From the NCBI RefSeq assembly GCF_029227855.1, contig NZ_CP074356.1: a stretch of DNA of 64,000 nucleotides; one strand, written 5' to 3'. Source of the DNA: Escherichia coli (GTDB taxonomy: Bacteria; Pseudomonadota; Gammaproteobacteria; Enterobacterales; Enterobacteriaceae). Position 1 is the stretch's first letter. Every line of letters begins with the position of its first letter. Of the stretch, positions 1 to 38,827 are shown one piece after another. A program made the position numbers and the translations under genes. The notes beneath the pieces are model-generated. The model saw only the letters and a list, made by a program, of their open reading frames with translations, did no database searches and had not been told where the DNA came from.

Positions 1-1593
1 GGCAGCTATGCGCACGATTTTACCGTCTGGAAAGGCGTTTCTGCTGTTGTTGAACTGGCCGCCACCGTACTGGTGACCTTCTTTTTACTACGTCTTCTAT
101 CGCTGTTTGGCCGCCGCAGCTGGCGTATTCTGGCGTCGCTGGTGGTGCTCTTTTCCGCAGGTGCCAGCTATTACATGACCTTCCTTAATGTGGTCATTGG
201 TTATGGCATCATCGCTTCCGTCATGACCACCGATATCGACCTGTCAAAAGAAGTTGTTGGTCTGAACTTTATTCTCTGGTTAATCGCCGTTAGTGCATTG
301 CCTCTTATCCTTATCTGGAATAACCGCTGTCGCTACACCTTGCTCCGACAACTGCGAACCCCAGGGCAGCGTATTCGCAGCCTGGCGGTCGTCGTACTGG
401 CGGGTATTATGGTTTGGGCACCGATTCGTTTGCTGGATATCCAGCAGAAGAAAGTGGAGAGGGCGACCGGCGTTGATTTGCCGAGTTATGGCGGTGTCGT
501 AGCGAACTCTTATCTGCCATCAAACTGGCTTTCTGCGTTGGGGCTGTATGCCTGGGCGCGGGTCGATGAATCTTCCGATAATAATTCATTGCTTAATCCG
601 GCGAAGAAATTCACTTATCAGGCACCGCAAAACGTTGATGACACTTATGTCGTGTTTATCATCGGTGAAACCACGCGTTGGGACCATATGGGCATTTTCG
701 GCTATGAGCGTAATACCACGCCGAAACTGGCCCAGGAGAAAAATCTGGCGGCGTTCCGTGGTTACTCCTGTGATACCGCAACCAAACTCTCACTGCGTTG
801 CATGTTTGTACGTCAGGGGGGCGCGGAAGATAATCCGCAGCGCACATTAAAAGAACAGAACATTTTCGCGGTTCTGAAGCAGTTAGGATTCAGTTCTGAC
901 CTCTACGCTATGCAGAGCGAAATGTGGTTCTACAGCAACACGATGGCGGACAACATTGCTTATCGTGAGCAGATTGGTGCGGAGCCACGTAATCGTGGCA
1001 AGCCGGTAGATGATATGTTGCTGGTAGACGAAATGCAGCAATCGCTAGGGCGCAACCCGGATGGTAAGCATCTGATCATTCTGCATACCAAAGGTTCGCA
1101 TTTTAACTACACCCAGCGTTATCCGCGTAGCTTCGCGCAGTGGAAGCCGGAATGTATTGGTGTTGATAGCGGCTGTACCAAAGCGCAGATGATCAACTCC
1201 TATGACAACTCGGTGACCTATGTGGATCACTTTATCTCCAGCGTGATTGATCAGGTTCGCGATAAGAAAGCGATTGTGTTCTACGCAGCTGACCACGGTG
1301 AGTCAATTAATGAACGCGAGCACCTGCACGGCACGCCGCGTGAACTGGCACCGCCGGAGCAGTTCCGCGTACCGATGATGGTCTGGATGTCAGATAAATA
1401 TCTGGAAAATCCGGCCAATGCTCAGGCATTTGCGCAGCTGAAAAAAGAAGCCGACATGAAAGTGCCACGCCGTCATGTAGAGCTGTACGACACCATCATG
1501 GGTTGTCTTGGCTATACTTCACCGGATGGTGGAATTAACGAAAACAACAACTGGTGTCACATCCCGCAGACAAAAGTGGCAGCGGCTAACTAA
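1..1593 (+). CDS. eptB: Kdo2-lipid A phosphoethanolamine transferase EptB (YhjW), N-terminally truncated by window start
   Basis: Frame 1 is open from base 1 and the translation matches the EptB sulfatase-family protein as recalled; the ORF track calls only from the internal GTG at 73. Stop at 1591-1593. Confidence 0.9.
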
Positions 1594-2673: not shown

Positions 2674-4281
2674 ATGCGTATTTCCTTGAAAAAGTCAGGG
2701 ATGCTGAAGCTTGGTCTCAGCCTGGTGGCTATGACCGTCGCAGCAAGTGTTCAGGCTAAAACTCTGGTTTATTGCTCAGAAGGATCTCCGGAAGGGTTTA
2801 ACCCGCAGCTGTTTACCTCCGGTACCACCTATGACGCCTCTTCCGTACCGCTTTATAACCGCCTGGTTGAATTTAAAATCGGCACCACCGAAGTGATTCC
2901 GGGCCTCGCTGAAAAGTGGGAAGTCAGCGAAGACGGTAAAACCTATACCTTCCATCTGCGTAAAGGTGTGAAGTGGCACGACAATAAAGAATTCAAACCG
3001 ACGCGTGAACTGAACGCCGATGACGTGGTGTTCTCGTTCGATCGTCAGAAAAACGCGCAAAACCCGTACCATAAAGTTTCTGGCGGCAGCTACGAATACT
3101 TCGAAGGCATGGGCTTGCCGGAGCTGATCAGCGAAGTGAAAAAGGTGGACGACAACACAGTTCAGTTTGTGCTGACTCGCCCGGAAGCGCCGTTCCTCGC
3201 TGACCTGGCAATGGACTTCGCCTCTATTCTGTCAAAAGAATATGCTGATGCGATGATGAAAGCCGGTACACCGGAAAAACTGGACCTCAACCCAATCGGC
3301 ACCGGTCCGTTCCAGTTACAGCAGTATCAAAAAGATTCCCGTATCCGCTACAAAGCGTTTGATGGCTACTGGGGCACCAAACCGCAGATCGATACGCTGG
3401 TCTTCTCTATTACCCCTGACGCTTCCGTGCGTTACGCGAAATTGCAGAAGAATGAATGCCAGGTGATGCCGTACCCGAACCCGGCAGATATCGCTCGCAT
3501 GAAGCAGGATAAATCCATCAATCTGATGGAAATGCCGGGGCTGAACGTCGGCTATCTTTCATATAACGTGCAGAAAAAACCACTCGATGACGTAAAAGTT
3601 CGCCAGGCTCTGACCTACGCGGTGAACAAAGACGCGATCATCAAAGCGGTTTATCAGGGCGCGGGTGTATCAGCGAAAAACCTGATCCCGCCAACCATGT
3701 GGGGCTATAACGACGACGTTCAGGACTACACCTACGATCCTGAAAAAGCGAAAGCCTTGCTGAAAGAAGCGGGTCTGGAAAAAGGTTTCTCCATCGACCT
3801 GTGGGCGATGCCGGTACAACGTCCGTATAACCCGAACGCTCGCCGCATGGCGGAGATGATTCAGGCAGACTGGGCGAAAGTCGGCGTGCAGGCCAAAATT
3901 GTCACCTACGAATGGGGTGAGTACCTCAAGCGTGCGAAAGATGGCGAGCACCAGACGGTAATGATGGGCTGGACTGGCGATAACGGGGATCCGGATAACT
4001 TCTTCGCCACCCTGTTCAGCTGCGCCGCCTCTGAACAAGGCTCCAACTACTCAAAATGGTGCTACAAACCGTTTGAAGATCTGATTCAACCGGCGCGTGC
4101 TACCGACGACCATAACAAACGCGTTGAACTGTACAAACAAGCACAGGTGGTGATGCACGATCAGGCTCCGGCACTGATCATCGCTCACTCCACCGTGTTT
4201 GAACCGGTACGTAAAGAAGTTAAAGGCTATGTGGTTGATCCATTAGGCAAACATCACTTCGAAAACGTCTCTATCGAATAA
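2674..4281 (+). CDS. dppA: Dipeptide ABC transporter periplasmic binding protein
   Basis: 535-aa ORF with signal peptide, family 5 solute-binding protein; first gene of the conserved dppABCDF order. Confidence 0.95.
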   Translation: MRISLKKSGMLKLGLSLVAMTVAASVQAKTLVYCSEGSPEGFNPQLFTSGTTYDASSVPLYNRLVEFKIGTTEVIPGLAEKWEVSEDGKTYTFHLRKGVKWHDNKEFKPTRELNADDVVFSFDRQKNAQNPYHKVSGGSYEYFEGMGLPELISEVKKVDDNTVQFVLTRPEAPFLADLAMDFASILSKEYADAMMKAGTPEKLDLNPIGTGPFQLQQYQKDSRIRYKAFDGYWGTKPQIDTLVFSITPDASVRYAKLQKNECQVMPYPNPADIARMKQDKSINLMEMPGLNVGYLSYNVQKKPLDDVKVRQALTYAVNKDAIIKAVYQGAGVSAKNLIPPTMWGYNDDVQDYTYDPEKAKALLKEAGLEKGFSIDLWAMPVQRPYNPNARRMAEMIQADWAKVGVQAKIVTYEWGEYLKRAKDGEHQTVMMGWTGDNGDPDNFFATLFSCAASEQGSNYSKWCYKPFEDLIQPARATDDHNKRVELYKQAQVVMHDQAPALIIAHSTVFEPVRKEVKGYVVDPLGKHHFENVSIE

Positions 4282-4431
4282 TTAAAAGCCATACCCGGTG
4301 GCGCTGTGCCTCTGCGTGCAGCGCCATCCGGCAGCAATACTTCATTCTCTGTCCGACAAGGGCGGGAATTGATTTGTGAGCAATACAGACACGCAGTTCC
4401 AGGCTGCGGGTCATTATAGAGAATCCGGGTT

Positions 4432-5451
4432 ATGTTGCAGTTTATTCTCCGACGTTTGGGACTCGTCATCCCCACGTTTATCGGTATTACCCTTCTCACA
4501 TTTGCCTTTGTCCACATGATCCCGGGCGATCCGGTGATGATCATGGCGGGCGAACGTGGGATCTCCCCTGAGCGTCACGCGCAGCTGCTGGCTGAACTCG
4601 GCTTAGATAAACCGATGTGGCAGCAGTATCTCCATTACATTTGGGGCGTAATGCACGGCGATCTAGGCATTTCAATGAAAAGCCGAATTCCAGTATGGGA
4701 AGAGTTCGTGCCGCGCTTTCAGGCCACGCTGGAACTTGGCGTCTGCGCGATGATTTTTGCTACGGCAGTCGGTATTCCGGTTGGTGTGCTGGCTGCGGTT
4801 AAACGCGGTTCCATTTTCGATCACACTGCAGTTGGCCTGGCGCTGACCGGCTACTCGATGCCGATCTTCTGGTGGGGCATGATGCTGATCATGCTGGTTT
4901 CGGTGCACTGGAACCTGACGCCCGTCTCCGGTCGCGTGAGCGATATGGTGTTCCTCGATGACTCCAATCCGTTAACCGGTTTTATGCTAATCGACACCGC
5001 CATCTGGGGTGAAGACGGCAACTTTATCGATGCCGTCGCCCATATGATCTTGCCTGCCATTGTGCTGGGTACTATTCCGCTGGCGGTCATTGTGCGTATG
5101 ACACGCTCCTCGATGCTGGAAGTGCTGGGCGAGGATTACATCCGCACCGCGCGCGCCAAAGGGCTAACCCGCATGCGGGTGATTATCGTCCATGCGCTGC
5201 GTAACGCGATGCTGCCGGTGGTGACCGTTATCGGCCTGCAGGTGGGAACATTGCTGGCGGGGGCGATTCTGACCGAAACCATCTTCTCGTGGCCCGGTCT
5301 GGGACGCTGGTTGATTGACGCACTGCAACGCCGCGACTATCCGGTAGTGCAGGGCGGCGTATTGCTGGTGGCGACGATGATTATCCTCGTCAACTTGCTG
5401 GTCGATCTGCTGTACGGCGTGGTGAACCCGCGTATTCGTCATAAGAAGTAA
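4432..5451 (+). CDS. dppB: Dipeptide ABC transporter permease
   Basis: 339-aa polytopic membrane ORF, ABC permease family; position in dpp operon. Confidence 0.93.
   Translation: MLQFILRRLGLVIPTFIGITLLTFAFVHMIPGDPVMIMAGERGISPERHAQLLAELGLDKPMWQQYLHYIWGVMHGDLGISMKSRIPVWEEFVPRFQATLELGVCAMIFATAVGIPVGVLAAVKRGSIFDHTAVGLALTGYSMPIFWWGMMLIMLVSVHWNLTPVSGRVSDMVFLDDSNPLTGFMLIDTAIWGEDGNFIDAVAHMILPAIVLGTIPLAVIVRMTRSSMLEVLGEDYIRTARAKGLTRMRVIIVHALRNAMLPVVTVIGLQVGTLLAGAILTETIFSWPGLGRWLIDALQRRDYPVVQGGVLLVATMIILVNLLVDLLYGVVNPRIRHKK

Positions 5452-36774: not shown

Positions 36775-38827
<2,053 letters not shown>

Follow-up and report, generated by a model that had tools for sequence, protein, structure and literature searches.

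GcvB pairs with an upstream C/A-rich enhancer of gltI, ChiX-chiPQ is a case of Rho-dependent polarity, and in the isc operon the RyhB site overlaps the ribosome-binding region of iscS. That operon, iscRSUA, is among the closest described relatives of the arrangement analyzed here: in the account of Desnoyers 2009 as summarized in PMC12533949, RyhB triggers the loss of iscSUA, and iscR is spared by a strong structure between iscR and iscS. The second point of reference is the REP/BIME elements, one of which, REP266, is named for dppA in K-12 (PMC10100675).

We analyzed a 64,000-nt stretch of DNA (hereafter the window) that carries the E. coli dppABCDF operon on the + strand. The dppA stop codon is TAA at 4279-4281 and dppB starts with ATG at 4432, so the gap between them comprises 4282-4431, the 150 nt given by the original prediction for this region; its features are collected in Table 1. 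On balance, we favor reading this spacer as a composite post-transcriptional control region for different DppA and DppBCDF levels, in which a REP-relic hairpin, Rho attenuation and a candidate RyhB site are combined. A hairpin, a predicted RyhB site and a link to iron make the spacer look like an iscRSUA-type device that splits the control of an operon.

Table 1. Features in and around the dppA-dppB spacer (window coordinates)
Feature	Position	Strand	Basis
dppA CDS (periplasmic dipeptide-binding protein)	2674..4281	+	ORF list; RefSeq annotation of identical DNA
Hairpin 1, the inverted repeat noted earlier	4295..4331	+	Fold, repeat search, Term-seq 3′ end
Hairpin 2 (4348-4366, 7 bp) and tail AAUUGAUUUG	4348..4376	+	Terminator-like pattern; 5′ flank of the candidate RyhB site
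Candidate RyhB pairing site TGTGAGCAAT	4375..4384	+	Perfect reverse complement of RyhB nt 41-50 (AUUGCUCACA)
Hairpin 3	4388..4412	+	Covariance model R1; directly 3′ of the candidate RyhB site
Conserved block ATAGAGAATCCGGGTT, ribosome-binding region, weak Shine-Dalgarno	4416..4431	+	Columns at least 90% conserved
Predicted start-codon helix	4426..4451	+	RNAalifold consensus, 25 genera; conservation-only
dppB CDS	4432..5451	+	ORF list

Structure and descent of the hairpin behind dppA

RNA folding of the full 150-nt spacer gave a minimum free energy (MFE) of -57.8 kcal/mol (z -2.78) and three hairpins. Hairpin 1 corresponds to the GC-rich inverted repeat of the original prediction, whose arms were placed by a repeat search at 4294-4306 and 4319-4331. 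It comprises 15 bp within 37 nt, with a single bulged T at 4327 and the loop CTCTGC at 4310-4315, and its MFE of -27.3 kcal/mol compares with a shuffle mean of -17.3 (z -3.51), 1 of 200 shuffles folding equally well; the repeat is thereby borne out, and the folding of 4282-4431 that had been proposed as a check does yield a stable hairpin. The sequence of hairpin 1 is identical in K-12, and the variants found in Escherichia lie in the loop or are wobble-compatible (C4302T, giving G-U), with the exception of one A-C mismatch in E. albertii.

The minus strand of hairpin 1 opens with the REP head GCCGGATG, a head GCCGGATGGCGC lies at 4332-4321 (-), and the opposite arm, CCCGGTGGCGC, is likewise head-like; at 37 nt, the element is an extragenic imperfect palindrome within the ~35-40 nt usual for REP units, to which it is homologous. 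The GTAG/CTAC foot is absent from hairpin 1, and orthologues in Leclercia, Superficieibacter and RIT691 carry GGCCTAC...GTAGGCC; we take the orthologous units in those genera to be REPs on the strength of these GTAGGCC feet. Both arms and both flanks of hairpin 1 align to an inverted REP-like pair at the same post-dppA position in Leclercia, Superficieibacter and RIT691, and the Citrobacter orthologue is intermediate between the inverted pair and hairpin 1. Because it aligns with the outer arms of the sister-genus inverted REP pair, hairpin 1 is, judged from these alignments, a relic of such a pair whose inner halves were lost, with the deletion presumably on the E. coli side: the inner ~27 nt, among them the GGCCTAC/GTAGGCC feet, are missing in E. 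coli, so that two REP heads now pair together. By itself, hairpin 1 is an ordinary REP-derived element. In other genera, different strong hairpins, or terminator-like hairpins with U-runs, occupy the same post-dppA position, which suggests that structure at this position is under selection.

As a dispersed repeat, hairpin 1 was rejected: within the limited sensitivity of BLAST for short degenerate copies, it is single-copy, a 53-nt query matching one place per genome across 5421 E. coli genomes and the K-12 BIME query matching a median of 7 places per genome. That BIME, of 157 bp, is an extra element between the dppA stop codon and hairpin 1 in E. albertii, K-12 and the GTDB representative E. 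coli. Two REPs in inverted orientation, with a spacer between them, make up this element, which is flanked by the short direct repeat (C)ATAC and lies at the position of window 4294/4295 (~2950-3085 of the K-12 locus L002). We take the spacer inside it to be the IHF-binding L motif. Of 5426 complete E. coli genomes, 3250 have the long form with the BIME; the window belongs to the short form, in which hairpin 1 begins only 13 nt past the dppA stop codon. Liang, Rudd and Deutscher reportedly found in 2015 that a distance of this kind below 15 nt lowers translation of the upstream gene.

Curated Rfam covariance models gave no match in 4282-4431 at E values up to 1, and Rfam scans of orthologous dppA-dppB loci returned no known family at the spacer position. 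The matches at dpp loci were naRNA4 upstream of dppA, together with ES036 (RF02751, 56.7 bits) and part of naRNA4 within the K-12-specific BIME, and no others. The naRNA4 match of the window (RF02564, 72.3 bits, above the gathering score) lies at 2023-2104 and marks a BIME upstream of dppA. An antisense ORF of 96 aa at 4254-4544 (-) crosses the spacer, and the same ORF is found at 945-1172 (-) of locus L001. The ORF overlaps the hairpins and the BIME and, although some RefSeq genomes list it as a 'hypothetical protein', probably represents a spurious gene call.

The RyhB-complementary block and its flanking hairpins

Conservation in the 3′ half of the spacer far exceeds that of hairpin 1. In 32 Enterobacterales spacers fetched via DppB, the consensus reads TTGTGAGCAAT, ACAGAC, a hairpin of variable sequence, CAYTAnAGAGAATCCGGGTT and the ATG. 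The invariant 10-mer UGUGAGCAAU sits between hairpins 2 and 3 and precedes the dppB AUG by 57 to 48 nt. Its RyhB counterpart, nt 41-50 of a sequence taken from the K-12 ryhB gene, is the central single-stranded seed and the segment that pairs with sodB. The predicted duplex comprises 10 contiguous base pairs (against a criterion of at least 7 nt) in an accessible part of the mRNA, with a mean unpaired probability of 0.54 for 4375-4384. Scored as windowed duplexes with opening energies, it has a hybrid energy of -14.9 and opening costs of 3.3 and 1.1, for a net -10.4 kcal/mol, and is the best RyhB-core site in 4232-4500; whole-length RNAduplex runs of RyhB against the spacer returned full-length duplexes, and shuffles scored equally well. 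As far as the searchable literature shows, a RyhB site in the dppA-dppB spacer is previously undescribed. The original prediction had left out this 10-mer, as well as the REP origin of hairpin 1 and the covarying hairpin 3.

In most of the 32 Enterobacterales spacers, the best RyhB-core site falls at the orthologous position, the RyhB cores outside E. coli being assumed to be conserved. Around the shared core GAGCAAU the duplex varies, reaching 13 bp in Erwinia and 11 in Pectobacterium, and in Pantoea it is shifted to RyhB nt 37-49, with UGUG lost and GU gained. In metagenomic leaders chosen by the dppB start alone, 63 of 83 distinct sequences contain the 10-mer unchanged, beside a freely varying hairpin. 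The motif is missing in the sampled Yersinia, Photorhabdus, Edwardsiella and Arsenophonus. One metagenomic lineage (L109, L113, L115, L121, L134, L190) has GUAAGC, GAUGUAAGCAAUAAC replacing GUGAGCAAU; this G-to-A change falls within the proposed RyhB duplex. Elsewhere in the spacer, 4283-4299 (UAAAAGCCAUACCCGGU) could pair over most of its length with the RyhB terminator stem (nt 73-90; hybrid -24.6, net -4.5 kcal/mol), a match we treat as chance because both partners are structured, GC-rich palindromes.

The hairpins on either side of the 10-mer differ in their evidence. At hairpin 2, Escherichia variants change U-G to U-A or C-G, and other genera have a hairpin at this position. Hairpin 2 was also considered as a terminator and rejected, the pattern match being weak and the K-12 Term-seq data showing no 3′ end there (PMC7815308). 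Hairpin 3 is conserved in structure and variable in sequence, with CCAGG apically in Enterobacteriaceae, and its covariance model matches dppB leaders only, with one match in the 64-kb window. In the genome set, 87.7% of cells were paired against 35-46% in slid controls, with both-side changes in 9 of 9 pairs; in the metagenome set (58 distinct sequences outside model building, from one scan anchored solely on the first 29 nt of dppB), the values were 84.5% against 27-56%, again with 9 of 9 pairs. With 15 G-U pairs against 2 A-C pairs, it is the mRNA (sense) strand that folds, and an antisense-strand reading was rejected. RNAalifold on a plain MAFFT alignment did not recover hairpin 3, since the variable stem is misaligned there; the covariance model with stated structure did. 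A long-range pairing between GUGAGC and the AGAGAGUUCG region appeared in Serratia and Pectobacterium folds and was rejected as impossible in E. coli.

Published data bear on this site from both sides. In an anaerobic comparison of fur with fur ryhB, Beauchene et al. 2015 (PMC4676285) listed dppBCDF, without dppA, among new RyhB-decreased candidate operons; a separate response of dppA and dppBCDF to RyhB is implied there solely by that label, and no RyhB site is given for dppBCDF (PMC4676285). A structure by Li et al. 2025 (PMC12136057) has DppD and DppF each binding a [4Fe-4S] cluster that is needed for translocator assembly, which makes DppBCDF, and not DppA, the natural iron-sparing target. 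In Salmonella exposed to iron-restricting egg white, dppB, dppD and dppF were down at the first time point, with dppA still unchanged (PMC5428311). On the other side, dpp genes are unmentioned among the 80 genes changed more than 2-fold in an aerobic RyhB pulse (PMC4666370); in an aerobic iron-limitation table, dppBCDF is absent and the RyhB term for dppA is non-significant (b3 -0.55, p 0.17; PMC8896160); and no RyhB-dpp chimera is among the Hfq-CLASH entries listed, which come from cells that were not iron-limited.

These data leave room for a neutral reading, in which hairpin 1 is a REP relic and chance exonuclease stop, the 10-mer serves as a translation enhancer or standby site or is bound by another sRNA or an RNA-binding protein, and the RyhB match is coincidental. 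Several observations favor it: the window holds 3 ten-nucleotide matches to the RyhB core where ~3.8 are expected by chance; E. coli intergenic DNA is ~98% conserved anyway; the aerobic data sets report no RyhB effect on dpp; and the 10-mer is distant, on the 5′ side, from the ribosome-binding site, with the C/A-rich ACAGACAC after it, a similar upstream enhancer in gltI being a GcvB target. A ten-nucleotide match is not significant alone, and the case for it rests on conservation and one transcriptome study. Nevertheless, we judge coincidence unlikely, since the conserved block matches the RyhB seed exactly, the duplex is extended or shifted by lineage with pairing kept, other genera have a different strong hairpin or terminator after dppA, suggesting selection, and the RyhB dependence of dppBCDF was independently reported (PMC4676285).

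A further predicted element lies at the dppB start. The RNAalifold consensus of 25 genera predicts a helix in which CGGG (4426-4429) pairs with the CUCCG codons and AUG (4432-4434) with CAU (4443-4445); no covariation was found in it across these genera, and the synonymous sites of dppB codons 4-8 are nearly invariant across Enterobacterales (ATGTTGCAGTTCATnCTCCGACGT, window 4426-4457). This predicted helix could sequester the start codon and limit dppB translation. Pairing of RyhB at 4375-4384 might instead activate dppBCDF and raise heme uptake in iron starvation, as for shiA and cirA, a reading in keeping with the possible AUG-sequestering helix, with a site upstream of the ribosome-binding region (a frequent position for activating sRNAs) and with the use of the Dpp translocator in heme acquisition (cited in PMC12136057). 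We nonetheless regard activation as improbable: the sole direct data set has RyhB decreasing dppBCDF (PMC4676285), and no pairing of the 10-mer with the ribosome-binding region is predicted, which would leave RyhB no inhibitory structure to relieve.

Two other loci carry RyhB-complementary stretches. The only other sense-strand RyhB-core 10-mer in the window, GAGCAATGTC at 37075-37084 (+; RyhB nt 38-47), lies upstream of nrfA (ATG ~37166) and is similar to the site in sodB. Judged by an FNR-like box at 37026-37039, the nrfA transcription start would be near 37074, and the candidate site then at the extreme 5′ end of the mRNA. The nrfABCDEF operon is on the same list of RyhB-decreased candidates as dppBCDF (PMC4676285). 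In the K-12 oppA-oppB spacer (L206, 215-299) of the paralogous opp operon, a GC-rich hairpin and then a U-run follow the binding-protein gene, and at the oppB start GGGCAAUGUU a 7-nt stretch spanning the AUG (GCAAUGU) could pair with RyhB nt 39-45, a match at chance level when taken alone. Collinearity of the window with ordinary E. coli genomes (dpp-bcs region) ends at ~27,896, no complete genome covers 80% of 8300-33000, and nrfA normally lies beside acs, far from dpp (strain 503025), so that the source genome is rearranged here or the assembly is chimeric. Many places per genome matched at the ~27,896 junction, which suggests a repeated or IS element there.

The 3′ end of the dppA message and attenuation into dppB

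Published Term-seq data (Adams 2021; PMC7815308, supplementary file 1) place an RNA 3′ end at K-12 3705889(-), which by the conversion K-12 coordinate = 3705790 + (4432 - x) is window 4333, 2 nt past the stem of hairpin 1. This end is listed three times in a file of three condition tables, the scores of two rows being 46,345 and 209,104, and no further 3′ end is listed in the K-12 dppA-dppB spacer, canonical BIME included (PMC7815308). The Term-seq and Rho data and the E. coli RyhB data are all from K-12, which bears the extra 157-bp BIME upstream of hairpin 1. In these data, dppA messages end at hairpin 1. Further on, a Rho-termination region peaks at K-12 3705667, window ~4555, 124 nt inside dppB, with upstream/downstream coverage of 234/64 without bicyclomycin (-BCM) and 250/141 with it (+BCM; Rho score 2.06, p 3.6e-5; PMC7815308, supplementary file 2). 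Expression drops ~3.7-fold across the dppB start, partly through Rho. The original prediction had proposed comparing the coverage of dppA with that of the downstream genes and had anticipated higher expression of DppA than of the membrane components; the published K-12 coverage is indeed non-uniform at the dppB start and fits an excess of DppA over DppBCDF.

How the 3′ end at hairpin 1 arises allows more than one answer. A GC-rich stem, an RNA 3′ end lying 2 nt beyond it and coverage that falls after dppA might mark an intrinsic, Rho-independent partial terminator attenuating between dppA and dppB, which we hold to be improbable. Hairpin 1 has no U-tract, being followed directly by CCGGCAGCAAUACUUC (CAGCAAUACUUC), and therefore is not an intrinsic attenuator; a terminator scan did not call it, and part of the drop is bicyclomycin-sensitive and maps inside dppB. 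Dar and Sorek are said to have found in 2018 that stable stems without U-tracts typically carry 3′ ends left by trimming after termination further downstream. The most economical reading would accordingly be that transcripts terminate beyond hairpin 1 and are then trimmed back to it, which would give hairpin 1 the classical role of a REP stabilizer, in which it probably raises dppA mRNA stability. Of the 'attenuator or mRNA-stabilizing hairpin' first proposed, the stabilizer, or 3′-end marker, is what stands, with the 3′ end at 4333, and the intrinsic attenuator does not.

The elements might also act on DNA, the REP relic as a site for gyrase, IHF or a nucleoid protein (REP and BIME are known to bind gyrase and IHF), or TGTGAGC, in which TGTGA is a CRP half-site and which resembles lacO, as a CRP- or LacI-type half-operator for an internal dppB promoter. 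This is the least probable of the alternatives: an internal dpp promoter has been noted by genomic SELEX, between dppB and dppC (PMC3946193), but a promoter scan of 4000-4700 found no sigma-70-like site, an operator at TGTGAGC was rejected as no second half-site is conserved, the covariation in hairpin 3 is of the RNA type, and the Pantoea register shift keeps the RNA pairing and not the DNA motif.

Proposed mechanism and comparison with known systems

Taking the preferred composite reading, we envisage the following course. Hairpin 1 would block 3′-to-5′ exonucleolytic trimming and so set the 3′ end of an abundant dppA-only message, presumably stabilizing it, and transcripts that continue would be reduced, in part by the Rho-dependent termination seen early in dppB in K-12. 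Hairpins 2 and 3 would hold UGUGAGCAAU accessible for the seed of RyhB, the Fur-controlled iron-starvation sRNA, whose pairing would lower dppBCDF while the dppA segment upstream of hairpin 1 survives. Such repression would spare iron, since a [4Fe-4S] cluster is present in both DppD and DppF and absent from DppA. At 48-57 nt from the AUG, the site is beyond the ribosome footprint, which makes it unlikely that RyhB simply occludes the ribosome-binding site; repression could run through recruitment of RNase E or through reduced dppB translation that exposes the RNA to Rho, and interference with an upstream enhancer may be an additional route.

A stronger version of this reading is a dedicated intra-operon iron switch, in which RyhB docks ~50 nt before the dppB ribosome-binding site on a 10-nt platform between clamping hairpins, lowers dppB translation and thereby exposes the Rho terminator, shutting off the [4Fe-4S]-bearing DppBCDF translocator, with the REP relic preserving the message for iron-free DppA; we put it forward tentatively and consider it doubtful as a whole. 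If true, it would be a conserved mechanism of the Enterobacterales in which an sRNA triggers Rho polarity at an internal cistron, and DppA would keep its other roles (chemotaxis, periplasmic binding) while transport is off. More generally, the analysis offers a concrete candidate site and architecture for a RyhB target known so far as a name on a transcriptome list; it would account for the presence of dppBCDF, and not dppA, in an iron-sparing regulon, with two [4Fe-4S] clusters per translocator; and it indicates that a decayed REP pair can come to define an mRNA 3′ end.

Among known systems, the malE-malF type of REP/BIME stabilizer shares with hairpin 1 an extragenic GC-rich imperfect palindrome directly after a periplasmic binding-protein gene, the minus-strand REP head GCCGGATG with an RNA 3′ end at the base, and a fit with higher expression of the upstream binding protein. 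Unlike REP/BIME elements, hairpin 1 is single-copy, lacks the GTAG/CTAC foot and joins two heads after loss of the inner halves, and the canonical BIME of K-12 lies upstream of it with no 3′ ends listed at the BIME. The candidate site would use the same RyhB segment (nt 38-50) as sodB, with the shared core AGCAAU, but the sodB site covers the start codon and the dppB site does not. As with GcvB and gltI, an sRNA would act on the mRNA of an ABC transporter ~50 nt ahead of an AUG, and as with ChiX-chiPQ, the Rho region lies early in the coding sequence, where sRNA-reduced translation exposes a Rho site; unlike in both, the link from RyhB to dppB translation or Rho is here a proposal only. The isc operon differs in the position of the site, which in dpp is predicted ~50 nt upstream of the dppB AUG and between two hairpins, and in that the dpp link is a transcriptome listing. 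What the locus would share with iscRSUA is a RyhB site, predicted in dpp, behind the first cistron, a strong spacer structure that protects the cistron upstream of it, downstream cistrons that encode iron-sulfur-related proteins, and operon halves that are regulated separately, as we propose for dpp. The dppA-dppB spacer would then be a second case in which, as in iscRSUA, a protective hairpin together with an sRNA site divides one operon into two expression classes.
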